Source of the DNA: Candidatus Poriferihabitaceae bacterium
Lineage (GTDB): Bacteria > Pseudomonadota > Gammaproteobacteria > Arenicellales > Poriferihabitantaceae
NCBI GenBank assembly: GCA_965204925.1
Contig: OZ242021.1
Span: 1,653,500-1,717,499, forward strand
Direction of reading: 5' to 3'
Length of the DNA stretch: 64,000 bases
Shown here piece after piece: positions 37,849 to 53,648 of this stretch. The notes under the pieces were generated by a model. It was not told the DNA's origin. It worked only from the letters and a program-made list of their open reading frames with translations, and did no database searches. Numbering within the stretch: position 1 is the stretch's first letter; the number at the start of each line of letters is the position of its first letter. Both the position numbers and the translations under genes were made by a program.

Positions 37849-37918
37849 TTCAGGCTGAACCGGCCAGGGTCGTCCGTCATCGGTGGCGAATTTATGTAAT
37901 CCTCAAGAGGCAAAATAC

Positions 37919-38182
37919 ATGAGTATCTATGCCGTCTTTCTCAACGAGCCGAATGAGGAGGCTTGGAAATCCGTCAAGGAGAAATGGCCGGGTCGGCATT
38001 TTATCCTGACCGGGAATCTGGCGTTTGTGGCGCCGGAAGGGATAACTACAACTTCGGACATCGCCGGGATTGTCGGTATAGGAGGGGAATCCGAGCTATT
38101 GGGAATCGTCTTCGACTGGGCGGCCCATAATGGATTCAACCGTGGCGATCTTTGGGAGTGGCTGGGCAAGGTACAGCCGTGA
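37919..38182 (+). CDS. Small hypothetical protein (87 aa)
   Basis: GAGG RBS; globular-looking sequence ending LWEWL; stop overlaps the next GTG. Confidence 0.6.
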   Translation: MSIYAVFLNEPNEEAWKSVKEKWPGRHFILTGNLAFVAPEGITTTSDIAGIVGIGGESELLGIVFDWAAHNGFNRGDLWEWLGKVQP

Positions 38183-38436
38183 CCGAGAATATTCATCATC
38201 TGCCCAGCCCACCGGCGCAGTCGGCTTCCGGTGGAAATGGGGGCGGGAGCAATTTACACGGGCGGCTCTCCGCTTTGGAAGCGGAGTTGAAACATCTGGC
38301 AACCAAAGAGGATATTCGGCGCATTGAAGCGCTGATCGCCCAACGGGAAGCCTCCTTGCAGCGGTGGCTGATTGGCGTAATTACCACCGCCGCCGTGGCG
38401 TTGGGGTTGACGCTGGTACGAGTTTTCATCAGCTAG
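38179..38436 (+). CDS. Small coiled-coil protein with C-terminal TM helix (CCDC90/XhlA-like)
   Basis: GGNGGG, RLSALEAEL..LATKEDI, WLIGVITTAAVALGLTLV. Confidence 0.7.
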   Translation: MTENIHHLPSPPAQSASGGNGGGSNLHGRLSALEAELKHLATKEDIRRIEALIAQREASLQRWLIGVITTAAVALGLTLVRVFIS

Positions 38437-38476
38437 TGGCCAGTTGGACGTGTAAGCCCCATTTTCGGCGATTATC

Positions 38477-38827
38477 ATGAGTGGCAAGCAAAGGGATATG
38501 TTTGTCGGGAAGCGAAAAGACCCTGAAGATACGAGACGGAGCAGGATTCCAGGGCTGCTGGATGCGGTTCCAGCGGTAAACTCAACGGGAACCGGCCGAC
38601 GCATAGCTTCTCGAAAGTCAAAAAAGCTCATCGCTTTTGGATGGTATGGCGGCAAATACTCTCATCTTGATTTTTTGATCCCGCTGCTACCTGGCGATGC
38701 CACGCACTTCTGTGACGTGTTCGGTGGGTCGGCGGCAGTCCTGATGAATGCCGGCCCTTATCCAGTCGAGACTTACAACGCACGACTTGCTTCTGGAACA
38801 GAATTTTTGATATTTCCCGGAACATGA
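38477..38827 (+). pseudogene. DNA adenine methylase (Dam/D12 class) N-terminal fragment
   Basis: FGWYGGK, DVFGGSAAV, VETYN; similarity ends near 38780; no DPPY motif. Confidence 0.85.
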
Positions 38828-39570
38828 CGGATTTGTGGGATCAGTTTTGTTCGGACATCGCTCCTTTCACCGCTTGTGTTTCCACCGAAGAGTTTGATTA
38901 CAGTATCAATATTTCTCTCAGATACCGCTATATCTACGTAGAAAACGCGAAGGTTGCCTGTTCCACGATCAAGTTGATCCTGCAACGCATGGAACTGGAT
39001 GATCCCGATTATCGTCCCGCAGAGTTGCTCGATCTGCACACACGGCTCTTCTCGCCGTTGATCCGCCCTGCCCAGGTCAAGTCTTTCCGGCGCTACGTCA
39101 GACGTCCGGATGTGGTCAAATTCTGCTTTGTCCGCAATCCGTACACCCGATTGTTGTCCGCCTGGCTTGATAAAATCGAAAACAACATGCCGGCAAAAAA
39201 GGAGATACTAAGGCAACTGGGTTGCGACCCGCAAGATTCGGGCCGCGCGGTGTCGTTCGGGGAATTTGTCCGTGTCGTGGCCGGACAATCGGTTGGCGCC
39301 ATGGATCCGCATTGGCGGGTGCAGTATTACCAAACCTTCCAGGACACGATCGATTATGATTTTATCGGGCGCTTCGAGTCGCTGGAACGAGACCTTGAAG
39401 CGGCGCTGGGCGCGATCAATCCGGGATTCCGGGCATTCTGGGGGAGGGAGGACCGCCACGCGACCCACTCACAACGAAAACTGGAGGCCTGCTATACAGA
39501 TCAGCTCGAGGACCTCGTTTACCGGACATACCGCAAGGATTTCCGGCAATTCAACTATGAGCGGATGTAG
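38824..39570 (+). CDS. Sulfotransferase family 2 (carbohydrate sulfotransferase-like)
   Basis: AKVACSTIK (5'-PSB), FVRNPYTRLLSAW (3'-PB), HWRVQ, YDFIGRFE. Confidence 0.88.
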   Translation: MTDLWDQFCSDIAPFTACVSTEEFDYSINISLRYRYIYVENAKVACSTIKLILQRMELDDPDYRPAELLDLHTRLFSPLIRPAQVKSFRRYVRRPDVVKFCFVRNPYTRLLSAWLDKIENNMPAKKEILRQLGCDPQDSGRAVSFGEFVRVVAGQSVGAMDPHWRVQYYQTFQDTIDYDFIGRFESLERDLEAALGAINPGFRAFWGREDRHATHSQRKLEACYTDQLEDLVYRTYRKDFRQFNYERM

Positions 39571-39638
39571 GTCGATGGGATTTTTGCCTTGCCCCGGCTG
39601 ACGAACGGTTGCATGCCCGAAATAAATGCGAGGTAAAT

Positions 39639-40913
39639 GTGAGCGGAAACCCGGAGAAACCGGCTGCCGTTTCAGTCATCATTCCTGCCCTTGACGAGCA
39701 GGATACCGTTGCTGACGTCGTGCGGGCCGCGGCTTTGTCCCCTCTGGTCAACGAAGTGATCGTGGTTGATAACGGTTCCAGCGATGACACGGCTGTGGCA
39801 GCCAGGGCCGCCGGCGCCAGCGTCCTCGTTGAACCGGCCGCCGGGCAGGGTAATGCGTTGCGAACAGGTTACGCCGCGGCGCGCAATGACTGGATCGTGA
39901 AACTCGACGCCGACCTGTCCGCATTCAGCCCAATCCTCGTGGAGACGCTGCAGGGCGCTGTCAGTACGGGGGTGGGGCTGGTAAAAGGGTTGTGGTTCGA
40001 CGCCAACGACAATATGCCGATGACCCGCCTGATGGTCAGCCCGGCGATTGCCATCCTGTTTCCCGGTCTGTCGCATATTCGCGCCGTCAATTCCGGCCTG
40101 TTCCTGTTTGATCGCTCACGCATCGCGGTCGGCGAGTTGACCGGCGGTTATGGCGCGGACCTGGATGTGATGCTGCGCATGCACACGGCAGGATGGGAAA
40201 CGGTTGAAGTGGAAATCGGGTCGATCCGTCACAACACACGCAGCCTCGAACATTACAACAAAATGTCGGAAGCCCTGCTTCGCTTCCTGATCGACCGTTA
40301 TGAACAGGCGCCCGGCAACGATCTGTTCATCGTCGCCAATACCGCCGAAGACCTGATCGGCTGTTGTTTCGGTCTCGCTGCGAAGAAACTGAAAAGCGGC
40401 AGCCGCGTTACGGCATTCCTCGGACATGAGCGGGGATACGGGGCGGCTATCCTGCGAGAGGCGCTTGCCGGCTATCCCACATTTTCTATTGAGCCGGTAT
40501 GCGCTGTCGGTGACGTTGACCCGCTGCCGCCGCGGCGCAAGACAACGATCATTACCCATTGTTTTTCCCCGGCCATTGGCGCGGGCGCCCCGGTAGTCGG
40601 CGCGGCCTTGCGGCTACAGGGAAAGCTCAACCGGACCGGCGGGCATGGAACCCTGCTGAGCATGCCGGTTCATGAAGACGGCCGCCCCCCGAACGACTTC
40701 CATGCCGATGTGCGGGTCGATATCAGTCCGGTCGCGCGCCTGAAAAAACAGGCGCGGGAGGCGTTGGGCGAACGCAGCCAGGCGGGTCGGGAGCGGACCG
40801 GCGAACGCGGCATGGACCGGCTTGTGTGGAACGGGTCATTCAACCCGCAAGCCGTCGAGTCTTTCCGAGCCTTCGACTCCAGGGACATGCCGCCGCCGTT
40901 CACCATCCTGTAG
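39639..40913 (+). CDS. GT2 glycosyltransferase (GpgS-like) fused to a degenerate PIG-L/LmbE-like domain
   Basis: SVIIPALDE, VVDNGSSDDT, LDADL; C-terminal half resembles a PIG-L scaffold lacking the HxDD motif. Confidence 0.75.
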   Translation: MSGNPEKPAAVSVIIPALDEQDTVADVVRAAALSPLVNEVIVVDNGSSDDTAVAARAAGASVLVEPAAGQGNALRTGYAAARNDWIVKLDADLSAFSPILVETLQGAVSTGVGLVKGLWFDANDNMPMTRLMVSPAIAILFPGLSHIRAVNSGLFLFDRSRIAVGELTGGYGADLDVMLRMHTAGWETVEVEIGSIRHNTRSLEHYNKMSEALLRFLIDRYEQAPGNDLFIVANTAEDLIGCCFGLAAKKLKSGSRVTAFLGHERGYGAAILREALAGYPTFSIEPVCAVGDVDPLPPRRKTTIITHCFSPAIGAGAPVVGAALRLQGKLNRTGGHGTLLSMPVHEDGRPPNDFHADVRVDISPVARLKKQAREALGERSQAGRERTGERGMDRLVWNGSFNPQAVESFRAFDSRDMPPPFTIL

Positions 40914-40990
40914 CGGTTATGGTATGCTCCGACCGCCCCTTTCCGAAAGTTACCCCTTAAGAGAGAAAGCAACCGGAGCGTGACTGAAAA

Positions 40991-43900
40991 ATGACCATTC
41001 CGACCATTTTCGAGACCTGCCGACCCCGTTCCGACATACTGCAAGGGGCGGTGAAGGATGAAGATTTCGCGGCTGACCTGGCGCAGGTAATCCGTGGCGC
41101 GGGGTCTGCCGAGTATCTGGACGCCACCCGCTTCTTTGCCAACACATACCCGACCAGGGGATTGCAGAACCTTCTTGCCAATGTCTGCGCGCGGTTGAGT
41201 GGTTCAGGCAATGCCGTCGCTTCCATTTTCCGGCTCGACACTTCTTACGGAGGCGGCAAGTCACATGGACTGATCGCGCTTTGCCACGCCGCGAGACGCG
41301 GGCATGAGACGCCAGACATGGAAGAATTTGTCGACCCCGGGCTGATTCCCCGAGGGCCGGTACGGATTGCCGCTTTTGACGGCGAGAACGCGGACCCGTC
41401 CAATGGGCGTAAAATGGAAGAGGGGTGTCTGGCGTACACTCCATGGGGGGAAATCGCCTGGGCGCTGGGTGGCAAGGATGGCTACGAGCGGGTGCGGGCC
41501 AGTGACGAGAATCGCATTGCGCCGGGCGCCGAAACCCTGCGCGAGCTGTTCGGCGGTGAACCGGTTCTCATCCTTCTGGATGAACTGTCGGTCTATCTTC
41601 GCAAAGTGCGGGGTATGGAGCACGCGCGGGAGCAGCTGACCGCGTTTCTGACCGCCCTGTTCAAGGCGGTCGAAAGCGCGCCCGATGCTGTTCTCGTCTA
41701 TACCCTTGCGGTCGGCAAGGATGGAACGTCTGCCGACGCCTACAGGGAAGAAAATCTGTTCATCGCGGACAAGATGGCCGAGGCAGAAAGCGTTTCGGCG
41801 CGCAAGGCGACGCTTCTGAACCCTACGGAAGAGGACGAAACGGTACAGGTGCTGCGGCGGCGATTGTTCGGGAGCATTGATGAGTCCGCCGCAAGGGACG
41901 CAGCCGATGCCTATCGAAAACTCTGGAATGACCATCGTGACAGTCTTCCCGCGAATGCCGCCGGATCTGAAACCGGCGAGGAGTTTGTGGCCAGCTACCC
42001 CCTGCATCCGGAGGTTCTGGCGACCCTGACCGCCAAGACATCCACCCTGGGAAATTTTCAGCGGGTGAGAGGTATGCTGCGCCTTTTGGCGCGTACCGTC
42101 TCACAGCTTTGGCGGGAGCGACCGGATGACGCCACCGCCATTCATCTGCATCACATTAACCCCGGATTCGAACCGGTTCGACAGGAGATACTGACACGCC
42201 TCGGTCAATCCGCCTTTGCGCCGGCTATTTCCAATGACATCTCCGCGGCGGCCAGGGACAGGCCTTCACTGGCAGAGAGTATCGACGCACAACTTCATCG
42301 TGGATTGCCGCCGTTTACCGCATATGTCGCTCGTACCATATTCATACATACACTCGCCTTCAATGAGCGTCTGAAGGGAATATCCCCCGAGCAACTGCGT
42401 TATTCGATATTGGGACCGCGGGTCGATATCAGCTTCATCGAGGATGCGCGCAAAAAATTCATCGAAGAGTCGGCCTATCTGGATGATCGCCCCGGTGTGT
42501 TGCTGAGCTTCCGGGCCGAGGCCAACCTGAGCCAAATGATCAAGCGCGTGGAAGATCGTGTCGATGCCGAGGAGACGCGCACCGAGCTGCGCGACCGCAT
42601 CGGCCGTATATTTGACGGCAAGGAGTTCCGTGAAGCGCTGTTTCCGGGCGGTCCGTATGAGGCGCCGGACGACATCGGCGATGCTCGTCCGCAGCTGGTT
42701 ATCATGGGCTACGATGCCACGAATGTCGGTGAGTTCGTGGATTCCGTACCGGAATTGGTGGCGCGTATTTTTACGAGAACGGGGGCCGAGGGCGGCGCGT
42801 TAAGAAAATTCCGCAATAATCTGGTATTCGTGGTCGCCGATGAGGGACGCAAGCAGGCAATGCAACGCAGGATAGTGCGGCGGTTCGCGTTGCGGGAGAT
42901 GAAGCAACCGGAAACCTTAAGCGGGCTGGCAGAGTACCAGCAGGACAAGGTGCGCGAACTGGACGCGCGCTCGGAACAGGAGCTCGCGCTGGCTATTCAG
43001 CAATGCTACCGGCATGTATTTTACCCGTCCCGCAACCGTATCGGTACAAGCAATGTCGATCTGGCGCATACGGCGATTGATCTTGATTCCGGTTCCGCGC
43101 AGCCGGGCAAGGGACAAACGCACATCGTGCGCGTATTGCGCAGTCTGAGCAAACTGCGCTTGCCCGAAGATGAGCCGGATTCCCCCGCATATGTGCGTGA
43201 CCGCACGCCGCTGAAAAAACATGGACAGATTTCGGTAAGGTCGTTGCGCGACGAGTTTCGCGCCGACCCGGCCTTGCCGATGCTGGTCGGGGATGAGGTA
43301 TTCGTTCGCGGGATAAGAACAGGCATTGAGCAGGGCGAGTATGTGTATCGGCGCGGAGACTTGATTTATGGGCCGGGCGACCCCGGTGTCGGCATTGACA
43401 TTGACGAACAGTCGATGATTTTCACGATGGCTTTCGCGAAGGAGAAGGGTCTGTGGCCGCGCCCGCCGGCCGTTGCGCCCGCGCCCGAGCCGGCTGCGGC
43501 CGATCAGGTTGCAGACGCGGCGGCAGGCGGATGGGCAGCAGCCCCTCGCCCATGCGGGCCTGATGACCCGCAAACTCCCGCAGAGACTGCAACTTCGCTG
43601 GATTGCGAAGGGCCGCTTCGTGAAGCGCTGGTGCGTCTTTGGGAAAAGGTTCGCGCGTACAAGGTGGATGCCATTGCGGGTTTGAATATTCGTATGTTCG
43701 ATGCTCTTGACGCCTTTCCTCTGATTAGCGTGGTGGGCGCCATCTCCGGGGCGGACAAGACTGTCACCATAAATGGCGGCTACGAGACCCCTGCGGGCGG
43801 GGAGTTGCGGCTGGATTTCCGGGGCTGTGCAGCCGACGCGCAACCGTTGCGGGAATTTCTTGAGCCGCAACTGCGGGCCGCCGGCGCCGGTTCTGCGCAA

Positions 43901-44038
43901 TTCGAGGTCGGTTTCGAGCTGGTGTTCGCGGGCGGATTGTCAATGAAGGGGCAGGATGCAGAGAAACTGACTGAACGACTGAGTCGGTATGCCAGCGGCG
44001 CCGCCCATGTTTCCAGTACTGTGGACACCGCAAAGTAG
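40991..44038 (+). CDS. DUF499 family ATPase
   Basis: FAADL, FFANTYPT.GL, Walker A YGGGKSH, Walker B LILLDE, YPLHPE, FQRVRGMLR. Confidence 0.9.
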   Translation: MTIPTIFETCRPRSDILQGAVKDEDFAADLAQVIRGAGSAEYLDATRFFANTYPTRGLQNLLANVCARLSGSGNAVASIFRLDTSYGGGKSHGLIALCHAARRGHETPDMEEFVDPGLIPRGPVRIAAFDGENADPSNGRKMEEGCLAYTPWGEIAWALGGKDGYERVRASDENRIAPGAETLRELFGGEPVLILLDELSVYLRKVRGMEHAREQLTAFLTALFKAVESAPDAVLVYTLAVGKDGTSADAYREENLFIADKMAEAESVSARKATLLNPTEEDETVQVLRRRLFGSIDESAARDAADAYRKLWNDHRDSLPANAAGSETGEEFVASYPLHPEVLATLTAKTSTLGNFQRVRGMLRLLARTVSQLWRERPDDATAIHLHHINPGFEPVRQEILTRLGQSAFAPAISNDISAAARDRPSLAESIDAQLHRGLPPFTAYVARTIFIHTLAFNERLKGISPEQLRYSILGPRVDISFIEDARKKFIEESAYLDDRPGVLLSFRAEANLSQMIKRVEDRVDAEETRTELRDRIGRIFDGKEFREALFPGGPYEAPDDIGDARPQLVIMGYDATNVGEFVDSVPELVARIFTRTGAEGGALRKFRNNLVFVVADEGRKQAMQRRIVRRFALREMKQPETLSGLAEYQQDKVRELDARSEQELALAIQQCYRHVFYPSRNRIGTSNVDLAHTAIDLDSGSAQPGKGQTHIVRVLRSLSKLRLPEDEPDSPAYVRDRTPLKKHGQISVRSLRDEFRADPALPMLVGDEVFVRGIRTGIEQGEYVYRRGDLIYGPGDPGVGIDIDEQSMIFTMAFAKEKGLWPRPPAVAPAPEPAAADQVADAAAGGWAAAPRPCGPDDPQTPAETATSLDCEGPLREALVRLWEKVRAYKVDAIAGLNIRMFDALDAFPLISVVGAISGADKTVTINGGYETPAGGELRLDFRGCAADAQPLREFLEPQLRAAGAGSAQFEVGFELVFAGGLSMKGQDAEKLTERLSRYASGAAHVSSTVDTAK

Positions 44039-44041
44039 GCC

Positions 44042-44518
44042 ATGCGTATGCGACTCATGGACGGCGTGACGACCGCAAGCGCCACCCCCCGCTATGAACT
44101 GCGGGTGCGGCGGCATGGGCCGGCGGATAGCGCGTACGAGATTTGGCAGTTGCCGGCTCCCGCCTCGCCGCATGTGAAAAGCGCGCAACGGGTGGCGGGC
44201 CTGAGAGGACGCAATCTGGATATGGTGGAGCGCCGTGTGCTCAAAAGGCTTGCGCAAGGAGGTGTCAAACCGGGCATGAAGGCTGGTTGCGGGGAATCGG
44301 GTTACGCATTGGGTGAGGACATGGCGCTTGTACTGGGACTGCTTTTTCGTACCCTGGCGCCGATGCGAAGTCGTGATAACATGCGCGCGGTTACGCAAGG
44401 GATCGAAGCGATGGAGCATGAGGAAGCGGCGTACTGGTTGGGCATGGCCATGCACCGCAAGCATCCGCGCCGGGCGCTGGCGGCGCTGCGTTGTCTGTTG
44501 ACGGAACCGGGGCGGTAG
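44042..44518 (+). CDS. Small accessory protein of the DUF499 system (occupies the DUF3780 position)
   Basis: 3 bp after the ATPase stop; LGLLF..LAP, EEAAYWL..A, AALR.LL pattern; family inferred from position. Confidence 0.7.
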   Translation: MRMRLMDGVTTASATPRYELRVRRHGPADSAYEIWQLPAPASPHVKSAQRVAGLRGRNLDMVERRVLKRLAQGGVKPGMKAGCGESGYALGEDMALVLGLLFRTLAPMRSRDNMRAVTQGIEAMEHEEAAYWLGMAMHRKHPRRALAALRCLLTEPGR

Positions 44519-44588
44519 GAGCGCATTATGTGCATTACCGAATGTCCATATCATGTCATTGGCAAAAGACAAATAAGGCGAAAACACC

Positions 44589-45214
44589 ATGAGAGAGCCA
44601 AGAAATATTGCAGTGGACAGAAGTCTCAACGAGGAGTCCGGTGAGAATGTAACCTCGGTTGGAGAATCACAAGGAGGGCCACAACATGTCCCGTACTTGC
44701 CGACAGCCCGGCAGTATGAGGCTTTGATCAACCGGGCATTGATCACGGACAGGCAGACGACAGAGCACAATACGCCCGACAAGACGGCATATCAGCAAAC
44801 AATTTCTCTTGATTCCACCAGAAAATATGACCAGATTGTCCCTGTACCGGATTTCCGCCAGCGGTGAGAGCCAAACCTTGTATGAGCACGTTTCGTGCAT
44901 TACAGGAATGGGAAGGGTATGTCGTTGAAATTAGAGAGGATGAGTTTGTTGCCAGATTGGTCGATTTGACGGCGGGAAAAAAATATGAAAGCGAAGAAGC
45001 GGTTATTCCTATGGTCGAAATCTCTGATCATGACGCATCCCGTATAGCCATCGGCAGCATTTTTCGGTGGGTGATCGGCTATGAACGCTCTCCCGAAGGA
45101 ACCCGGAAGCGAGTATCGCAGATCGTTTTTCGGGATCTGCCCAGAATGACCGAAAAGGATTTTGCGGATGGAAGAGAGTGGGCCAAAGGAATTCTGGCAG
45201 CTTTCGATATGTGA
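44589..45214 (+). pseudogene. Hypothetical protein with LQEWEGYV..FRWVIGY beta-rich domain, probably one frameshifted gene
   Basis: ORFs 44589-44867 and 44864-45214 join as VPDF-PPAVRAKP if one T is added to the T run at 44852-44854; the downstream ORF could also be expressed alone. Confidence 0.6.
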
Positions 45215-46298
45215 AAACCATGGAGGAGCCGCCGCGAGACTGCGAAATCGAATTGACACTTCTTGGTCCCGGCTATGGTGAAAGTATCCTGATTCATATC
45301 GGTGATGGTAAATGGGTCATCGTCGACTCTTTTCCTGATTCTGACGAACGGCCGGTAGCCTTGGGGTATCTGGAAGAGATTGGTGTTGATCCTGCACAAG
45401 CCGTTGTGTTGATTGTGGCAACGCACTGGCATGACGATCACATTCGTGGTATCTCGCAGTTAGTCGAACGATGCTCTGTGGCAGAATTTTGCTGTGCAAG
45501 CGCTCTGTGCCGAAAGGAGTTCCTGACTCTGGCGGGGGCGCTGGAAGGCCGGCATTTTTCCGCTTCGGGTTCCGGGCTGCGTGAATTGTACAGTGTGTTC
45601 TCCTACCTGAAATCAGCGAGGAGAAAGCCGGCATACGCAATCGCCAATCGTATGATCTACCAAACTCAGGCTTGCTCTGTTTGGTCACTTTCCCCGAGTG
45701 ATGAGATTTTTCAGTCCTTTTTGCAGTCTGTGCAGTCCCTGATTCCTGGCGCAGGTGACGGAAAAACAATAATTCCGTCCCTTTCTCCCAATAAGGCTGC
45801 GGTTGTGTTGTGGGTGAGTTTTCAGCGCTTCTCGCTTCTGCTTGGGGCGGATTTGGAAAGAAGGGGGTGGCAACTGATCTCAATAACGGGATGTGTCCCG
45901 CGGGTAAGGCATCGGTATTCAAAATCCCTCATCATGGCTCAGGCAATGCCGACGAACAGGGTATATGGAACCGGCTGCTGGAGCCAGCGCCATATGCGGT
46001 TTTGGCTCCCTGGCATCGGGGCGGCCATGTTTTGCCAACAGCACAGGATATTCATCGTATTTGTATTTCCACTCCCAACGCTTACGCATCCGCCAGGACA
46101 ACACAACAAGCCCGTTCCGGTTCCGGTCGCACAACAGGGATGGTGGCAAAGACTCTGCGGGAAACGGATGCCCGGGTCTATTCGCTGCCTGCTAAAGTCG
46201 GTTCTGTGCAATTACGGCATCCTCTGGCTTCCACAACAACCCGGTGGTCGGTCGCATTGTCCGGAGATGCGCATCGTCTCAAGCAAACTGCAGATTAG
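45211..46298 (+). pseudogene. ComEC/Rec2-like MBL-fold hydrolase, frameshifted
   Basis: GYGES, VDS, THWHDDH, LGADLE in one frame; KIPHHGS and the C-terminus in another; 1-nt loss near 45880. Confidence 0.85.
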
Positions 46299-46350
46299 TG
46301 TCGCCGAAAGATACTCGACTGATTGAAGCTGGCTGCCGGTCGCGGAGGGT
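46298..46350 (+). repeat. Degenerate copy of the DUF1156 gene 5' end
   Basis: GAAAGATACTCGACTGATTGAA at 46306-46327 is identical to 47478-47499; GCTGGCTGCCG follows in both, with one C missing in this copy. Confidence 0.92.
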
Positions 46351-46354
46351 GTAG

Positions 46355-46573
46355 GGAGAGCGTGCGTGGTTTTCCGATTCCTCGACAACCGAAAAGCACA
46401 AATTCCACGATAAACTTACTTTCGGGCGCCCGGATGGTTCAACGAATCCGTTGTTTTGCCCCTGGCGCGGGAAGATATCTCATCAGACTTTACGGTTGCA
46501 TTTTTCATGGCCTGTTGGTGTCGGGGAGGAGATTTATATCGTTTATGCCGGACCCAAAATCACAAGGCGGTAA
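46355..46573 (+). pseudogene. Start-less 3' remnant of a gene with a RelE-like C-terminal domain
   Basis: Manual translation GERAWFSDSSTTEKHKFHDKLTFGRPDGSTNPLFCPWRGKISHQTLRLHFSWPVGVGEEIYIVYAGPKITRR*; not in the ORF track. Confidence 0.6.
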
Positions 46574-46576
46574 GAG

Positions 46577-46619
46577 ATTGTCAGGTATTGCTTGACAATA
46601 TCTCCGGGTATGGTAGCTT
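46577..46619 (+). promoter_or_regulatory. higBA promoter and operator
   Basis: TTGACA (46592-97)-N16-TAGCTT with TG extension; inverted repeat ATTGTCA-N9-TGACAAT (46577-46599) over the -35. Confidence 0.7.
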
Positions 46620-46626
46620 TGCGGTC

Positions 46627-46906
46627 GTGATCAGCAGTATTCGGCATAAGGCGTTACGGGTTTACTGGAGCAAGGGGCAAAGGCGAGGATTGAATAGCGA
46701 ATGGATACAAAAACTTCGGCGGATTCTGTCAGCTCTGGAAGCTGCCGAGCGGCCTGATCACATGAACTATCCCGGATCGTAACTTTCACTTACTGAAGGG
46801 GGGCGGGGCGGGGCGCTATGCCGTTCGTTTGACCGCCAACTATCGCGTGACCTTCGGGTGGGATGGAGACAGCGCCGTGGATGTGGACATAGAGGACTAC
46901 CACTAA
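46627..46906 (+). pseudogene. higB: HigB (RelE/ParE family) toxin, disrupted
   Basis: ISSIRHKALR..RRILSALEAA..PGS then TAA at 46780; continues in the +1 frame as FHLLKG..GRYAVRLTANYRVTF..VDIEDYH*. Confidence 0.9.
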
Positions 46907-47214
46907 TGATCGAAAGACATCCTTCCGTAGAACCTGTGCACCCCGGGGAGGTCTTGCGCGAGGATATTATGCCGGTACTTTCCCTGAACAAGACAGCCGT
47001 AGCCGATGCTCTCGGGATATCCCGACAAACGTTGTACGGTATCCTGAACGAGAAGCAGCCGGTTACCGCCGGCATGGCGGTGCGGTTTGGCAAGCTGTTC
47101 GGCAATGGTGGTATTTTTTGGATGAATCTGCAACGCAACCATGACCTCGCGGTCGCAGAGCGCACGGTAGATGTGTCGAGAATACAGACTGTTGAGGCAC
47201 AGGTCGGGAAATGA
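46906..47214 (+). CDS. higA: HigA antitoxin (XRE HTH)
   Basis: PVHPGEVLRED, ADALGISRQTL..ILNE, FWMNLQ..HDL; TAATG coupling to higB. Confidence 0.93.
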   Translation: MIERHPSVEPVHPGEVLREDIMPVLSLNKTAVADALGISRQTLYGILNEKQPVTAGMAVRFGKLFGNGGIFWMNLQRNHDLAVAERTVDVSRIQTVEAQVGK

Positions 47215-47261
47215 AGAATACAGTTACCGGGATTTACGTTCCTGGTGGCGCCTGCCAACGA

Positions 47262-47395
47262 CCACTCCCCTCTTGACGGGGAGTCAGGAAGCCAGAGGCT
47301 ACAGCCCGCCGACCGGCGGGGATACGTACCTGCTTATCCTGCCGCCGAATCATCCTGCGAACCGGCTTCTTCGACTCCCCCGGCAAGGGGAGTGG
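47262..47395. repeat. REP/MITE-like palindromic element
   Basis: CCACTCCCCTCTTGACGGGGAGTCAGGAAGCC ... GGCTTCTTCGACTCCCCCGGCAAGGGGAGTGG: imperfect terminal inverted repeats of about 32 bp, each itself a hairpin. Confidence 0.75.
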
Positions 47396-47472
47396 CGGGT
47401 ATATGCAGAATATAATGCGGACGCGCAGGGGCGCCCCTGCGGGATCATTAAACCATGGTACATGGTATTGTC

Positions 47473-50466
47473 ATGAGGAAAGATACTCGACTGATTGAAC
47501 GCTGGCTGCCGATTGCGGAACTGGGCATAGAGAGCACGCGCGAGCGCACCCCCATGACGCCTTATCCCGCTCCCAACCGCCTGCATGTCTGGTGGGCGCG
47601 GCGGCCGCTGGTGGCGTCGCGCGCCGCTATTCTGGCGTCGCTGCTGCCGGCGGACGCGGACCGTGATCGGTTTCTGCATGTGTTGGGCATTCATGGGGAT
47701 CCGGTGGCAGCGCGTAGAAGACTTGATGCTGCCAAAAAAACCGGGGAGAACCTTGGCCCTGACCCCTATGGTTACAAACGCACATTTTCCTATTCGCCGA
47801 CCGGATGCGATATTGAGTGGGTCGAAGATGTATCCAGCAACAAGGCATCAAGCATCTCGGTTCTGGACCCGACTGCCGGTGGAGGCAGTATTCCAATAGA
47901 AGCGAGTCGTCTCGGGGTCACAGCCTTTGCAAACGACCTGAATCCAGTGGCCGCCTTGATTCTCAGAGCCACAATTGAATGGCCCGCTCGGCATGGTTCT
48001 CAACTGCTATCCGAATTTAACGAACTGGCCGCCGAATTTTTACATCGGGCTGAACCAAAATATCAGGAAATTTTCCCAATGGAGCCGGAAGACAGTCGGG
48101 TTGACGGCTACCTCTGGGCCCGCACAATCACCTGTCCGTACTGTTCCGGTCTGGTGCCGTTGTCGCCGAACTGGCGTCTGGCGCCGGGCGGTATCGGGGT
48201 GCGGTTGAAGCCGGACCCGGGCGCGGGGCCGGGGTCGCAGGGTCGGGTCTGTGCGTTTGAAATTGTGGGAAATGCCGGGGAGCAGTCGGAGGGGACAGTG
48301 GCGCGCGGGGATGGCGCCTGTCCCTGGCCCGATTGCGGCCGCGTCATCGACGGAGATGAAATCAAGCGGCAGGCCCAATCGGGCCGGATGGGTGAGCAGT
48401 TGTATGCCATTGTCTATAAAAAACGGATCAGGACAACCCTGAAGTCGGGCAACCGGGGCAAGGACAAGTGGGCGCGCGGCTATCGGGCTCCCGCGCCTGA
48501 AGACGACAACAGCGCGGACATCGCGGCGCGGCTGGCCGGGAAACTGCCGGAATGGGAGGCGCTGGACAGGGCGCCGAGTGAGAAAATTCCGGATGGCAAC
48601 AAGACCACGGAACCCCAGCGGTACGGCATGCCATACTGGCGCGATTTGTTTTCAGCGCGTCAGCTTCTCTGCCACGGTACCAGCGTCGAAGTCTTTCAGG
48701 AGATGCTGGAGGCCGACCGCAAGGACGGCAAGCTGACCGATGCGCGGCGGGCGGCGTATGGGTATTTGGCATTCGTTATTGATACGTTGCTTGACTACAA
48801 CAATAGATGCAGCGTGTGGGACAACACAATCGGTCGCGTGCGGCACATATTTGCTCGTCATGATTTTGCTTTCATATGGTCCTACGCCGAGATGTCGCCT
48901 CTGGTGACCGGCGTTGGGTATGACTGGGCCATCGAAAAGACCGCCAAGTGCATCCGGGAACTCATATCGCTGTTGCGACCGGACGCGGGCGGCAAGGGCG
49001 GCAGCCGCGACCGGCCCCTGCTCGAAAACGAATATACACCGCCTCCGATTACCATCTCCTGCAAGTCCGGCGACAGCCTCGACCATATCGAAGACGGCAG
49101 TATGGATGCCGTGGTCATGGACCCGCCCTATTACGACAACGTCATGTATGCCGAGCTTTCCGACTTCTTCTATGTCTGGCTCAAGCGCACGGCGGGACAT
49201 GTCTTCCCGGAACTCTTCCGCAGAAATCTCACCGACAAGGAAAGCGAGGCGGTCGCCAACCCGGCGCGGTTTCGGGGGATAAGGGGCGCGAAAGCCCTGG
49301 CCGGCCTCGACTACCGGGAACGCATGGCGTCAATCTTTGCGGAATGCCGCCGGGTCTTGAAAAAAGATGGCATCCTGACGCTGATGTTCACACACAAGGC
49401 GGCCGGCGCCTGGGATGCCCTGGCCAAGGGCCTGATGGAAGCCGGATTCATCGTTACGGCATCGTGGCCGATCAATACCGAGGCGGAGGGCAGCCTGCAT
49501 ATCCGCAACAAGGCGGCGGCCAACAGTACGATTTTCCTGGTATGCCGGCCACGCCCCGTCAAGTCCGCTGACGGTCAAAACCGCTATTGGGAGGATGTCG
49601 AGCCGCAGGTCGCCGCGCAGGTGCGGTCAAGGATTGCGGGATTCCAGGAGGCGGGAATTTCCGGGGTTGACCTCTATCTCGCGTCCTTCGGCCCGGCCCT
49701 TGAGGAATTTTCGCGCCATTGGCCGCTCAGGCGCGGGACGCCGGGCAAGAAGCCGGAGGTATCGCGCGGACGTCAAGCCGGAACGGTTGCCGATGAAGAG
49801 TGGGATCCGTATGCCGTTACCCCGGAAGACGCCCTGAATGTCGCGCGCCGCGAAGTCAAGTCGCAGCGGCTTGAGTCATTGACGCGCAGCGAGGCGAACG
49901 AGGATATGGACCCGGCGACAGCCTTCTTCGTTCTGGCATGGGATGCCTTCCGGGCGCCGGAATTTCCCTATGATGAGGCGCTCAAGCTGGCCCGGGCAAT
50001 CGGCGCCGACCTTGATCGGGACATCCTGGGCAGGTTGGCGCACAAGAAAAACAAGGACATTGTACTGTTAAGCAGTGTGCAGCGGGCGGCCATGGGAACG
50101 CTGGGCCCGGTTGACGGCGCGCGCGGGGTCATTGACAGCATCCATCATGGGGCGCGCCTGGCGCGCACGCGCTCTCTGGCTGCAGCCAGGGATTTCCTCG
50201 GGGAAGCGCAAATACATCGGGGCGACAAGCGGTTCACCACGGCCATGAAGGCGGTACTGGAAGTGTTGCCGGTCGGCAGAACCCTGGCGGTCGGTCCGCG
50301 ATCGGATAGCGACAGGGTCAGCGCCGACGGTGGCGCGCAGCCTGGCGGCCGGATGGAGGAATTCGGCAGTGACTTCGAGGCGCTGTATCACCTGTCGCGC
50401 CTGATTTCCGGGGAGCGGTTCGAGGAGCCGAAACAATTCGATTTTCTGCAGGACGGAATTTCCTGA
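47473..50466 (+). CDS. DUF1156 family DNA adenine methylase
   Basis: LHVWWARRPL, DPTAGGGSIP (SAM binding), NDLNPVA, CPYC..CPWPDC Zn ribbon, DPPYYDN. Confidence 0.92.
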   Translation: MRKDTRLIERWLPIAELGIESTRERTPMTPYPAPNRLHVWWARRPLVASRAAILASLLPADADRDRFLHVLGIHGDPVAARRRLDAAKKTGENLGPDPYGYKRTFSYSPTGCDIEWVEDVSSNKASSISVLDPTAGGGSIPIEASRLGVTAFANDLNPVAALILRATIEWPARHGSQLLSEFNELAAEFLHRAEPKYQEIFPMEPEDSRVDGYLWARTITCPYCSGLVPLSPNWRLAPGGIGVRLKPDPGAGPGSQGRVCAFEIVGNAGEQSEGTVARGDGACPWPDCGRVIDGDEIKRQAQSGRMGEQLYAIVYKKRIRTTLKSGNRGKDKWARGYRAPAPEDDNSADIAARLAGKLPEWEALDRAPSEKIPDGNKTTEPQRYGMPYWRDLFSARQLLCHGTSVEVFQEMLEADRKDGKLTDARRAAYGYLAFVIDTLLDYNNRCSVWDNTIGRVRHIFARHDFAFIWSYAEMSPLVTGVGYDWAIEKTAKCIRELISLLRPDAGGKGGSRDRPLLENEYTPPPITISCKSGDSLDHIEDGSMDAVVMDPPYYDNVMYAELSDFFYVWLKRTAGHVFPELFRRNLTDKESEAVANPARFRGIRGAKALAGLDYRERMASIFAECRRVLKKDGILTLMFTHKAAGAWDALAKGLMEAGFIVTASWPINTEAEGSLHIRNKAAANSTIFLVCRPRPVKSADGQNRYWEDVEPQVAAQVRSRIAGFQEAGISGVDLYLASFGPALEEFSRHWPLRRGTPGKKPEVSRGRQAGTVADEEWDPYAVTPEDALNVARREVKSQRLESLTRSEANEDMDPATAFFVLAWDAFRAPEFPYDEALKLARAIGADLDRDILGRLAHKKNKDIVLLSSVQRAAMGTLGPVDGARGVIDSIHHGARLARTRSLAAARDFLGEAQIHRGDKRFTTAMKAVLEVLPVGRTLAVGPRSDSDRVSADGGAQPGGRMEEFGSDFEALYHLSRLISGERFEEPKQFDFLQDGIS

Positions 50467-50468
50467 GC

Positions 50469-53400
50469 ATGCTTGTCGAGCATAAATGGCGGGTGAAGTA
50501 TACCTCCAGTCATGGCGACCTCGTGCGCCTGTTTTACCTGCCCGCCCTCAGGCAAGCGCGGCGCTATGACCGGCTGACGGGTTACTTCAATGCCGGCGCC
50601 CTGACCCTCGCGGCGCGCGGGATTGAACACCTGGCGCGCAACGACGGACGCATGCGGCTTGTGACAGGGTGCACGCTGGCTCAGCCGGAAATCGACGCGA
50701 TCGAAAAGGGCGAGCGCCTGCGCAGCCAGATCGAACGGCATCTGGGCGCGGCGCCCCTTGTTCCACCGGACGCCGCGTCCAGGGACGCCCTGGAATTGCT
50801 GGCGTGGATGGTGCAATACGGGTTTCTCGAGGTGCGGGTTGCGGTGCCCTGCGGCGCGGATGGCAAGCCAATCCCCGAGGATGGCATCTTCCATGAGAAA
50901 GCGGGGATCATTGAAGATCGGGCGGGGCATAAAATTGCCTGGACCGGAAGCCTGAATGAGACCAGCGCCGGCTGGCGCCACAACTGGGAGAGTTTCAGCG
51001 TGTTTACCAGCTGGGCGGACAGGGAAAGAGTGGATGAGGAGGAAGCCAATTTTCTGCGCATATGGGGCGGCGGTTCTGCAAATTTTATCGTGGTGGATGT
51101 GCCGCAAGCCGTACGGGACGATTTATTGCGGTTTATGCCGGCCGCGGACCCGGTTCGTCTTGCGCATGCAGAAATTGAGCGGCCGCCGCCTGCCTCCCGG
51201 GCGGCGGAGTCGCCGGCGATAACAGATACGGCGCCGCAAGCGCCCCGGTCGGAATGGAAGAGGCGTCGGGTCTGGACCTTGATCCGCGAGGCGCCGGCAT
51301 GGGCGGACAGCGGCGAACAAATCGGCGAGGCAACCTGTGCGGTCAATCCCTGGCCGCATCAGGTGAAGGCCCTGCAACGCCTGTACCGCAGCTGGCCGCC
51401 CAGACTGCTGATTGCCGATGAGGTCGGGCTGGGCAAGACTATTCAGGCCGGCTTGCTGTTGCGCCGGGCGTGGCTGGCGGGACATGCCAGACGGATTTTG
51501 ATTCTGGCGCCGAAGGCGCTGCTCGGACAGTGGCAAATCGAACTGCGCGAGAAGTTTAATCTCAACTGGCCAATTTATGATGGCAATGAGCTGGTATGGT
51601 ATGAATCGCCGGCGCTGCGCGGGCGCAATACACGCAGGGTTGACCGCGACGCCTGGCATCACGAGCCGGTCGTGCTCGCTTCCAGCCAGCTGATGCGCCG
51701 CCGCGAACGAACGGCGGCGTTGCTTGAGCGGGCGGAGCCCTGGGATCTGGTGATTCTGGATGAAGCGCACCATGCCCGTCGGCGGGGCGCCGGCAGTGAT
51801 GTGGAAGGAGGCCCCAACCACCTGCTCAGGCTGATGCAGGGTTTGCAGAAAAAGACACAGGGGCTGGTTCTGTTGACGGCGACTCCGATGCAGGTGCACC
51901 CGATAGAGGTCTGGGATTTGCTGAATCTTCTCGGCTTGCCGCCGCAATGGAGTGAAAGCGGATTTCTGGACTTTGTCAAAACTGTCGCGATACCCGCTCC
52001 AGAGCCGCAGGCGTTTGAGCAAATGGCCCGGCTGTTCCTTTCGGCAGAACAGGCCTACGGCGCAACCGGCGTCGAAAGCGCGGTAAGCATCACCAAGTTA
52101 TCCGGAATCATAACCGGCCATATACTCGCAGCGCTGCGCGACCCCAGCACGATACCGCGCCGGCAATTGCCGCCGCAGCAGCGCCGCGCCGCCGTCAAAA
52201 TCATGCAGGCCAACACGCCGATGCGGCGGTTGGTATCGCGCCATACGCGCCAACTGTTACGCCGGTACTTGCGCGTGGGGATGTTGTCGACGCGGATTGC
52301 CGAGCGCAAGGTCAAGGATCGATTCCTGAAAATGTCACGACCGGAACGGGCGCTGTACGATGCGGTCGAGGATTACATTTGCGAGACTTGGAAGCGGGCC
52401 AGCCAGGAGAAAAAAACCGCTGTGGGATTCGTCATGACGATCTATCACCGGCGGCTGGCGAGCAGTTTCACCGCGTTGCGCAAGACCCTGGAGAAAAGGC
52501 GGGCGGCGCTCGCGGCCGGCCGGTGCGAGGAGCCATTGATCCACGCGGATGACATCGAGGAGGACAGCCTGGAGGAGGAGTTCAGCGACCCTGACGATAC
52601 CGGCAAACTGGCAAGCATGGCGCTGGCCAGTGAAGAGCAGGCTGAAATTGATTACCTGCTGGCGCGCATCGAACAACTGCCGCCCGATACCAAACTGGAG
52701 GCGCTGCGGAAGGTTCTGCGGTCATTGTTTGCCGACGGGTATCGGCGGGTGATGGTGTTCACGCAATATGCGGACAGCATGGATTTTCTGCGCGAGGAAT
52801 TGGGTCGGCATGGAGCATGGCGGATAATGTGCTTTTCCGGCCGCGGCGGAGAGGTGGACGCAAGTGATGGTTCGTGGAAACAGATTAGCCGGGACGATGT
52901 CAAACGGCGGTTTCGGGATGCTGAAGCGGATATCCTGTTATGCACGGACGCCGCGGCGGAGGGCTTGAATTTCCAGTTCTGCGGCGCCCTGGTAAATTAT
53001 GATATGCCGTGGAACCCGATGCGGGTAGAACAGCGTATCGGGCGTATTGACCGCTTGGGGCAGGAAAGTGAAACCATCCGTATCGTCAACCTGCACTATG
53101 AGGATACGGTCGAAACCGATGTGTATCAGGCGCTGGAAAATCGTATTGATCTGTTTCAGTCCGTGGTCGGCAGATTGCAACCCATACTGGCCCGTGTGCC
53201 GCAAGCCATCAAGCAGTCTGTGCTTTCCGGGGCGAGCCGTGAACCCGGCGAGCGTAAGAAGATAGTGGATGTACTGGAGCGCGCAGTGAGCGATTCCGGG
53301 GGCGGGGAGATTAATTGGGATGAGGTGACGGAAAGCGATATCGACATGCCGGCGCGCCCCGATTCACCGATCAAGATGAAGGACCTGGATCGGGTGATCA

Positions 53401-53648
53401 ATAGCGCTGAACTGAGGCCGCAAGGCGTCTGCGTCCAGCCGCTCGGGAAACGGGAATACAGCCTGCTGGCGCCGGGCATGGACGAGCCGTTACGGGTGAC
53501 GACGGACCCGTCCTATTACGAGAAACATGCCGAACATGTGGAACTGTGGTCACCCGGCAATCCCCTGTTCGTAGCGCCTGAATTTGACGGGGTACCCGCA
53601 GAGTCCATCCGGGGCAAGACGTTGCGGGATATTCTGGATGGAGGATGA
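50469..53648 (+). CDS. PLD-nuclease / SNF2 helicase fusion
   Basis: GYF, HEK.G..ED..GSLNET (PLD); ADEVGLGKT, DEAH, LTATP, PWNPMRVEQRIGRIDRLGQ. Confidence 0.92.
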   Translation: MLVEHKWRVKYTSSHGDLVRLFYLPALRQARRYDRLTGYFNAGALTLAARGIEHLARNDGRMRLVTGCTLAQPEIDAIEKGERLRSQIERHLGAAPLVPPDAASRDALELLAWMVQYGFLEVRVAVPCGADGKPIPEDGIFHEKAGIIEDRAGHKIAWTGSLNETSAGWRHNWESFSVFTSWADRERVDEEEANFLRIWGGGSANFIVVDVPQAVRDDLLRFMPAADPVRLAHAEIERPPPASRAAESPAITDTAPQAPRSEWKRRRVWTLIREAPAWADSGEQIGEATCAVNPWPHQVKALQRLYRSWPPRLLIADEVGLGKTIQAGLLLRRAWLAGHARRILILAPKALLGQWQIELREKFNLNWPIYDGNELVWYESPALRGRNTRRVDRDAWHHEPVVLASSQLMRRRERTAALLERAEPWDLVILDEAHHARRRGAGSDVEGGPNHLLRLMQGLQKKTQGLVLLTATPMQVHPIEVWDLLNLLGLPPQWSESGFLDFVKTVAIPAPEPQAFEQMARLFLSAEQAYGATGVESAVSITKLSGIITGHILAALRDPSTIPRRQLPPQQRRAAVKIMQANTPMRRLVSRHTRQLLRRYLRVGMLSTRIAERKVKDRFLKMSRPERALYDAVEDYICETWKRASQEKKTAVGFVMTIYHRRLASSFTALRKTLEKRRAALAAGRCEEPLIHADDIEEDSLEEEFSDPDDTGKLASMALASEEQAEIDYLLARIEQLPPDTKLEALRKVLRSLFADGYRRVMVFTQYADSMDFLREELGRHGAWRIMCFSGRGGEVDASDGSWKQISRDDVKRRFRDAEADILLCTDAAAEGLNFQFCGALVNYDMPWNPMRVEQRIGRIDRLGQESETIRIVNLHYEDTVETDVYQALENRIDLFQSVVGRLQPILARVPQAIKQSVLSGASREPGERKKIVDVLERAVSDSGGGEINWDEVTESDIDMPARPDSPIKMKDLDRVINSAELRPQGVCVQPLGKREYSLLAPGMDEPLRVTTDPSYYEKHAEHVELWSPGNPLFVAPEFDGVPAESIRGKTLRDILDGG

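Follow-up and report, generated by a model that had tools for sequence, protein, structure and literature searches.

A MANTIS-like DUF499 operon with a clade-specific cassette slot in a Candidatus Poriferihabitaceae bacterium

The operon and its cargo

The subject of this report is a four-gene operon of a Candidatus Poriferihabitaceae bacterium (Gammaproteobacteria; GenBank assembly GCA_965204925.1, contig OZ242021.1, positions 1,653,500 to 1,717,499 of the forward strand). This stretch of 64,000 nucleotides is called the window, and all positions given below refer to it. The operon resembles the anti-phage system MANTIS and is split, between its second and third gene, by a slot that holds the remains of gene cassettes. 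Its ATPase, accessory, methylase and PLD-SNF2 genes, which we call the core, all reside on the + strand (Table 1).

Table 1. Genes and other features of the operon and its slot (positions in the window)
Feature	Position	Strand	Evidence or length
DUF499 AAA+ ATPase, MtsA/HmaC-like, intact, 1015 aa	40991..44038	+	Pfam PF04465 E 4e-37, above cut-off; PADLOC HmaC 306 bits; Gao DUF499 131 bits
DUF7680 accessory protein, MtsB position, intact, 158 aa; 3' end is left anchor of slot	44042..44518	+	Pfam PF24728 E 3e-42
Slot between accessory and methylase genes	44519-47472		2954 bp
Probable last codons (~10) of c1, first gene of three-gene MBL cassette; remainder missing	44547..44576	+	c1 profile positions 224-230, expected place
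c2, second cassette gene, frameshifted near 44850	44589..45214	+	tblastn: aa 11-112 in one frame, aa 80-205 in another
MBL-fold (ComEC-like) putative nuclease, third cassette gene, frameshifted near 45880	45178..46298	+	Lactamase_B E 3.5e-10; two-frame tblastn vs ~371-aa homologues
Orphan methylase 5'-end stub, 63 nt (putative recombination scar)	46306..46368	+	nhmmer positions 4-67, E 6e-5
Last 72 codons of third gene of Menshen-like cassette (NsnC position)	46355..46573	+	tblastn aa 248-319 of 319-aa homologues, 49-64% identity, E to 1e-28
HigB-like toxin gene, frameshifted near 46780	46627..46906	+	HigB-like Pfam E 0.006; reading resumes in other frame up to HigA start
HigA antitoxin, intact	46906..47214	+	TIGR02607 E 3e-24, above cut-off
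DUF1156 N6-adenine methyltransferase with Zn ribbon, MtsC/HmaB-like, intact, ~1000 aa	47473..50466	+	PF06634 E 5e-16; HmaB 248 bits; DUF1156_MTase 155 bits
HKD/PLD nuclease fused to SNF2 helicase, MtsD-like, intact, 1059 aa	50469..53648	+	Pfam PLDc_2 + SNF2 + Helicase_C; NF042964 E 4e-113, below cut-off

A preliminary description of this DNA, drawn from the letters only, had seen four co-oriented intact genes with tight spacing within each pair. Coordinates, gaps (3 bp between ATPase and accessory gene, 2 bp between methylase and helicase gene), Pfam assignments (DUF499, DUF7680, DUF1156, PLD-SNF2) and motifs bear this out. The motifs comprise GGGKSH, LLDE, DPPY, CPYC..CPWPDC, HEKAG..GSLNET, DEVGLGKT, DEAH and QRIGRIDR; in the helicase protein, Pfam places a PLDc_2 domain at aa 137-199, and HxK and GSxN motifs are present. 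For the methylase, homologues favour a start at 47473 over one at 47455. Among the relatives discussed below, with the window counted and broken or truncated copies left out, the Walker A motif GGGK[ST]H and the Walker B motif LLDE are found in 71/71 full-length intact ATPases, DPPY in all 45 intact methylases and the helicase motifs in 30/30. Compared with the closest relative, the locus L012, the ratios of nonsynonymous to synonymous substitution rates (dN/dS) are 0.14, 0.08, 0.20 and 0.16 for the four core genes, rough values with dS above 1. The core genes are thus intact and under purifying selection, as had been presumed.

Between the two pairs, some 2.9 kb of unrelated, mostly broken genes had been noted. 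Their length and their decay were judged correctly; yet they are no random set, but consist of two recurrent cassettes and HigBA, with a second copy of the methylase start, overlooked before, lying in between. The first cassette, c1-c2-MBL, named after its three genes, the last of which encodes a metallo-beta-lactamase (MBL) fold, has lost nearly all of c1, and the profile score of the piece left at 44547 is, by itself, below significance. The C-terminal half of the c2 remnant is 50-70% identical to homologues (tblastn). The methylase stub that follows shares its first 22 nt with the start of the resident methylase and diverges thereafter (93% identity over 42 nt, 85% over 62 nt). A perfect 22-nt direct repeat lies at 46306 and 47478, and these are its only two copies in the genome. 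Of a Menshen system, which consists of NsnA, NsnB and a third gene, the window retains 72 codons of the third gene. HigA alone is intact, and the cargo in this genome is mostly dead. It therefore cannot act here as the working backup defence that had been suggested, although in relatives the cargo is mostly made up of known defences (see below).

The MBL and HigB breaks in the cargo are no artefacts of assembly. Contig X1, possibly from the source sample, matches 37500-47616 with 0 differences and covers the whole slot; contig X3, from another sample, matches 45385-47127, again with 0 differences. These two breaks are thus seen in two samples, the one near 44850 in X1/X2 only. No joint indicative of excision across the 22-nt repeat occurs among the contigs listed (15 of 16), which is uninformative, as contigs drop rare variants. 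With three frameshifts in ~2.2 kb of cargo versus none in 9.7 kb of core, the pattern fits selection on the core only. The GC content is lower in the slot (0.52-0.56) than in the core (0.58-0.64). The ~260 bp from HigA to the methylase start (47215-47472) have no match in any other locus; within them, 47333-47390 has one copy of 83% identity elsewhere in the genome (G000:C1:109773-109829).

The slot across relatives

Relatives were collected in two sets, the best 80 of 393 GTDB matches and the best 80 of 405 metagenome matches. In the first set, the gap between the accessory and methylase genes could be closed in 57 loci; the other 23 have no methylase start in range. It exceeds 300 bp in 52/57 and 1 kb in 47/57, with a median of 3.2 kb. 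The neighbouring junctions are mostly tight: ATPase and accessory genes are at most 100 bp apart in 77/80 loci, methylase and helicase genes in 36/47. In the second set the slot is empty (<=100 bp) in 39/56 loci, the median being 23 bp, which rules it out as a family-wide feature. If only loci with at least 5 kb downstream are considered, it is empty in 24/34 of the second set versus 5/75 of the first.

A FastTree tree of 122 loci contains one clade of 73 (support 0.95), of which 54 carry cargo, 4 are empty, 14 have no methylase in range and 1 is of unknown state. The 36 more distant loci comprise 26 empty ones, 5 with cargo and 5 undetermined; the other 13 are mostly devoid of a downstream methylase. 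On the 80-locus core tree, the state of the slot, cargo versus empty, changes 7 times as compared to 21.0+-1.5 times with shuffled labels, which makes the slot a trait of the clade. The identity of the first cassette, in contrast, changes 23 times, against 24.3+-1.5 with shuffled labels, and hence is random on the core tree; cores that are 96-99% identical carry different cassettes (L015/L022, L023/L044, L039/L046). The slot is real and restricted to one clade. The variable slot for auxiliary defences that had been proposed thus holds for the closest loci, with their wide gaps and recurrent cargo, and not for the many metagenome loci that are empty. The cargo-bearing set spans at least six phyla, and many of its lineages we take to be sponge symbionts.

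A sister lineage (L036, L054, L060, L065, L067, L086; mostly Acidobacteriota) has its methylase upstream of, and divergent from, the ATPase-accessory pair. In five of these six loci the helicase accompanies the methylase, with a methylase-helicase gap of ~790 bp. Inserts between methylase and helicase are seen instead in L153, L159, L164, L166 (1.9 kb), L185 (2.5 kb) and L083 and L088 (1 kb). These loci are mostly outside the cargo clade, and the junction may be a second slot.

The recurrent cassettes

The 225 open reading frames (ORFs) from 53 slots belong to few recurrent families, and 188 of them are co-oriented on the + strand. Annotation was based on one representative for each of 18 recurrent clusters, 68 singletons being left out. 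When 55 closed slots are tallied, window and fragments included, c1-c2-MBL (cassette A) is the commonest with 25/55, followed by a Menshen-like cassette (B, 19/55), Septu (C, 12/55), AAA + STAND-TPR (D, 7/55), PDC-M38 (F, 4/55), a Thoeris-like TIR-SLOG-TIR cassette (E, 3/55) and IrrE-DUF4411 (G, 2/55). These seven families form 20 distinct arrays, and 18 slots contain two or three cassettes; many slots contain fragments, some transposases. The content between accessory and DUF1156 genes is thus variable, as predicted, but in a clade-specific manner. Judged by similarity, most of what recurs corresponds to known defences (Menshen, Septu, Thoeris-like TIR-SLOG, PDC-M38, STAND-TPR). In sister loci the partners of the Menshen-like cassette match NsnA (E 5e-111) and NsnB (E 3e-101); its third gene has no Pfam or NCBIfam match. 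What emerges is a limited repertoire of cassettes, the order of which changes even where the cores are nearly identical.

The cassette of an AAA protein (~424 aa) and a STAND-HTH-TPR protein (980-1240 aa) is found in L032, L048, L053, L058, L063, L064, L070 and L074. It abuts or lies near the methylase start, has no good PADLOC match and is a second candidate defence. The ATPase of the PDC-M38A cassette has a homologue (32%) elsewhere in the genome, at G000:C1:967363-968439.

In the commonest cassette, neither c1 nor c2 has a match in Pfam, NCBIfam or PADLOC. For c1 there are 592 homologues, and a c1 homologue lies closest to a cluster that carries the name TIGR04255 (0.98). The predicted model of c1, a confident one (pLDDT 89), retrieves TBP-like and AdoMetDC sheets in Foldseek, with E ~1e-4 and TM <=0.32; this TBP-like resemblance may be taken as a weak lead only. 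The MBL protein has the motif THWHDDH in 19/19 intact homologues, and in PADLOC the cassette shows weak matches only (E 1e-5 to 1e-10). Matches to c1 are present in 4/401 genomes of the phylum; all four have c2 and MBL matches directly downstream, with no core-gene match within the 9-16 kb fetched. The same triplet is found at both plasmid matches (2 plasmids). In five pairs of intact genes of this cassette, dN/dS is 0.15-0.41. The triplet is a conserved, mobile module and, by its embedding, a good candidate for a defence system.

Stubs at the seams and mosaic methylases

The 81 loci of the first set were searched with profiles of the eight core-gene ends, and five methylase matches were excluded as resident genes that are frameshifted or cut by the locus edge. 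This yielded 17 orphan methylase starts, spread over 13 loci, 16 of them with their beginning within positions 1-5. Orphan accessory tails likewise number 17 in 13 loci, and 12 of them reach the end of the gene. All of them are co-oriented. The other six core-gene ends gave about 4 true orphans, as opposed to 34 at the slot-facing ends. No such stubs were detected in the metagenome set away from contig edges. At a threshold of 12 bits, stubs are located at 14/35 junctions between cassettes versus 1/123 junctions within cassettes, and the lone exception (L070) is itself a seam ahead of a second c1 fragment. In L031, L057 and L080 a methylase start joins an accessory tail directly or nearly so. 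The stubs are variable in length, with breakpoints from 40 to 240 nt, and 57-92% identical to the resident gene; that of L070 represents another methylase allele than the resident one and hence is no local duplication. Together, these features speak against both a fixed att site and a simple local duplication.

In close pairs of operons, most of the left half shows 91-100% identity per 300 nt. Over the first 1.5 kb of the methylase gene, identity falls to 54-62% in the most divergent windows, and the rest is again ~87-100% identical. dS amounts to 0.30-0.54 in the methylase versus 0.04-0.09 in the ATPase. The drop and the jump are due to recombination; the N-terminal half of the methylase is exchanged as well. 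In the methylase of MANTIS, MtsC, target recognition resides in aa 444-527, within this half, and swapping this segment changes specificity (10.64898/2026.09.23.753747). By analogy, exchange of the N-terminal half may alter specificity also here. Within the left half, no other 100 nt are as conserved as the accessory tail (80-81% vs 69%), and contigs from other organisms pile up on both slot-facing ends (four runs), as is expected of anchors.

Around residues 25-35 of the methylase, two discrete loop alleles precede the HVWWARRP motif of DUF1156 in L012-L090, one of TPMTPFPAPNRL type, the other of RSMTALPPTYYL type. They occur clade-wide, and near-identical cores may differ in them (L015 vs L022). 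The stub in the window ends ahead of the diagnostic residues, which leaves it without an allele type. MtsC is described to enter the DNA minor groove via a loop before Motif X (10.64898/2026.09.23.753747).

How the slot may be refilled

We consider the operon as a MANTIS-like DUF499 system whose accessory-methylase junction is a clade-specific site of cassette swapping. The junction is probably refilled when flanking core genes recombine, and not by an integrase. The probability of this reading we estimate at roughly 70%. If MANTIS is a guide, the ATPase would load the methylase with the help of the small protein, the methylase would hemimethylate a short asymmetric site, and unmethylated inverted pairs of this site would trigger the PLD-helicase. 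In MANTIS itself the site is 6 bp long, restriction is strongest at inverted pairs, and none of the four genes is dispensable. As to the slot, the usual event would be a double crossover, in which an incoming accessory tail, cassette and methylase start replace the resident cassette, often with the N-terminal half of the methylase brought along. More rarely, homologous recombination at one end might be combined with illegitimate joining at the other; the old cassette would then be kept, and a core-gene stub would remain at the seam. The enrichment of stubs at between-cassette junctions points to such an integrase-free stacking. In the window, the MBL cassette and the old methylase start may have been followed by a later piece, composed of the Menshen-like tail, HigBA and the current methylase start; after this stacking most of the cargo would have decayed, while the core stayed intact.

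There are observations that speak against this picture. The three large proteins score 205, 230 and 379 bits with the Gao/MANTIS models of NCBIfam, the cut-offs being 1200, 1000 and 1100, respectively. The ATPase and the methylase score higher with the Hma models of PADLOC, and, as far as sequence comparison can detect, DUF7680 is unrelated to the essential MtsB family. The methylase N-terminal half differs between operons with the same cargo (L016/L022), so that the two kinds of swap are not obligately coupled. No stub is found at 21/35 cassette junctions. Finally, L038 has stub-bounded cassettes upstream of its ATPase, with further stubs in L020, L049 and L090, and such cassettes fit equally well with tandem operons that have been trimmed by deletion.

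The latter possibility is the most serious rival, if an unlikely one. It retains the system and the slot, and proposes that the arrays arise by tandem integration of whole operons and subsequent deletion of redundant core genes; the deletions would stop short of the still-selected cargo and leave slot-facing ends only. The variable breakpoints (40 to 240 nt) are in line with it, as are methylase-head stubs fused to ATPase-tail pieces (L057), the stub-bounded cassettes upstream of the ATPase (L038, L090) and the two operon copies in several genomes (L015/L016, L028/L043). However, two adjacent whole operons were seen in 0/80 loci, in spans of 20 kb that are short for such a test, and slow trimming should have left more orphans of the other six gene ends than the few observed.

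That the gap is a passive sink, the sole junction where insertions spare coupled translation and where cargo decays without flank exchange or benefit to the host, is improbable. The nearly complete breakage of the cargo in the window, the fragments in many slots and the transposases in some would suit it; yet the same seven families recur, mostly co-oriented, intact genes of the MBL cassette have dN/dS of 0.15-0.41, stubs are specific to cassette seams, and the methylase-helicase junction tolerates inserts too but is mostly closed. A site-specific, integron-like recombinase acting at the 22-nt methylase-start repeat could explain this repeat and perfect matches of 21-24 nt at methylase starts in L080 and L090, but is highly improbable and already largely refuted by the variable breakpoints: the seams are core-gene stubs of widely varying length, many of them sharing no more than 57-90% identity with the resident gene, accessory-tail stubs equal methylase stubs in frequency, and there is neither an integrase among the 17 window ORFs scanned nor a tRNA gene in the window.

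Genomic surroundings

The glycosyltransferase and heptosyltransferase-like genes that flank the operon are common to all 7 congeners. Between them, one congener has ~75 bp, and six have 1.7-11.4 kb of other DNA, mainly transport/metabolic genes (as judged from 21 of 37 ORFs). Only one of the seven has an ATPase match, a distant one with 27% identity. The operon is a lineage-specific insertion. A role of the site as a defence hotspot of the genus is unsupported, the congeners having transport/metabolic genes or nothing there in the same scan. A consensus scan for a promoter of the right half of the operon gave none on the + strand, and the count of sites was no higher than chance.

A second, small insertion, unmatched at its site in the 7 congeners, is located at 37851-38803. 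Two short ORFs of 99 and 94 aa in it lack annotation, and a fragment at 38477-38827 stems from a truncated adenine methylase of the Dam/D12 type. At G000:C1:2306973-2309487 (- strand) the genome has another locus that distantly resembles DUF499/DUF1156 and is in part 37% identical to the methylase; its open frames are just 659 and 580 aa long, and it is probably degraded.

Significance

It has been published that DUF499 operons harbour Septu and similar systems (10.1101/2024.01.29.577857; PMC11232893; PMC12839542), and the window is a decayed example of this kind of arrangement. What is new is the counted scar pattern, the restriction to a clade and the unannotated three-gene cassette as a candidate defence, though the supplements of PMC12839542 may already list such loci or cassettes. 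Our literature search, outside subscription journals and bioRxiv supplements, revealed no paper on DUF7680 and none on TIGR04255; among the papers listed for the MBL triplet, or for a hotspot and partial duplication, none describes what is seen here.

The guilt-by-embedding preprint leaves open how defences become embedded (10.1101/2024.01.29.577857). The stubs and mosaic methylase halves offer a testable route of embedding, and from them one may infer in which order cassettes were acquired. Candidate defences can also be drawn from the slot: two of the three genes of its commonest cassette, A, are unannotated. The role of MtsB is listed as unclear by the MANTIS authors (10.64898/2026.09.23.753747), and DUF7680 is a natural comparison for it. 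A bolder view, tentative and somewhat less than an even bet, is that the clade of DUF7680-type operons might be a community-wide, integrase-free exchanger of cassettes across at least six phyla, in which one swap would change both the backup defence and the methylase N-terminal half, and with it likely the target specificity, while stubs record the order of acquisition; c1-c2-MBL would then protect against phages by itself, as a system not described so far, and DUF7680 would fill the role of MtsB in a second way, without relation to it in sequence.

Relation to known systems

MANTIS (Gao_RL / Gao_29; Type-2 BREX-related; PMC12839542) shares with the window operon the order ATPase, small protein, N6-methylase and HKD/PLD-SNF2 protein, and the catalytic motifs (Walker A/B, DPPY, PLD histidine, helicase Walker A). 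Three features of Type-2 BREX-related systems are found here: a DUF499 ATPase of the ORC/Cdc6 AAA+ type with intact Walker A/B, a DUF1156 methylase with DPPY and a Zn-finger insert, and a PLD-SNF2 fusion. The match to a BREX-related four-gene architecture, made in the preliminary description, is therefore sound as to gene order and motifs; it breaks down with the DUF3780 test and the NCBIfam cut-offs. The further statement that the mechanism is poorly understood has been overtaken: for the DUF3780 form it was worked out in 2026 (10.64898/2026.09.23.753747).

The differences are not negligible. The small protein here is DUF7680, that of MANTIS is DUF3780 (MtsB); upstream of the window operon there are just 77 bp, which is no room for mtsR; and a cargo slot splits the window operon, whereas the available text on MANTIS describes none (10.64898/2026.09.23.753747). 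The 205 bits of the ATPase with NF042962 (cut-off 1200) indicate a distant lineage. DUF7680 has no match to PF12635, NF042961 or the DUF3780 model of PADLOC. As a detectable homologue of DUF3780 it had to be rejected, with an hhalign probability of <=0.3%, from shallow profiles (effective number of sequences, Neff, 2-3), and a pairwise z of -0.4, the same as that of controls. Its AlphaFold2 model (pLDDT 84) has four core strands and five helices, and no match in the PDB at E<=0.001 (Foldseek); the fold of DUF3780 is given as four antiparallel strands backed by five helices (10.64898/2026.09.23.753747). The best local alignments of the two are collinear, and both contain EExxWxxGMA. Because the DUF3780 test fails and the NCBIfam cut-offs are missed, we file the operon as one that most likely works like MANTIS, not as a member.

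With Hma, or Type-1 BREX-related systems, the operon has in common the core of DUF499, DUF1156 and SNF2 proteins, the best PADLOC scores (HmaC, HmaB) and cargo, for example Septu and GmrSD-like genes, that is embedded in the same orientation; embedded genes are reported for 62.7% of Hma systems (10.1101/2024.01.29.577857; PMC11232893). Hma is defined by a three-gene core with a C-terminal PD-(D/E)xK domain on the helicase. The window helicase, in contrast, has an N-terminal PLD domain and, by Pfam, no C-terminal DUF3883 or restriction endonuclease domain, and the operon has an extra small gene and one dominant slot. The Hma papers, as far as available, describe neither stubs nor an insertion mechanism.

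Cassette A has the ComEC-like MBL fold that protease-MBL modules, Lamassu LmuA-MBL and Avs1a use as a defence nuclease (10.1101/2025.11.14.688446). It differs in that its MBL protein is accompanied by the unannotated, TIGR04255-like c1 and by c2, and that it has no protease match.

The closest parallel to the stubs is provided by the type VI secretion effector-immunity arrays of Vibrio cholerae and the Rhs/CDI orphan arrays, which likewise display orphan gene ends and no integrase; the model put forward there is homologous replacement with occasional homology-facilitated illegitimate recombination (PMC5361080). The units differ, however: in the present operons, entire anti-phage cassettes lie between two genes of the core of a restriction system; they may be anchored at either end and are common to several phyla.

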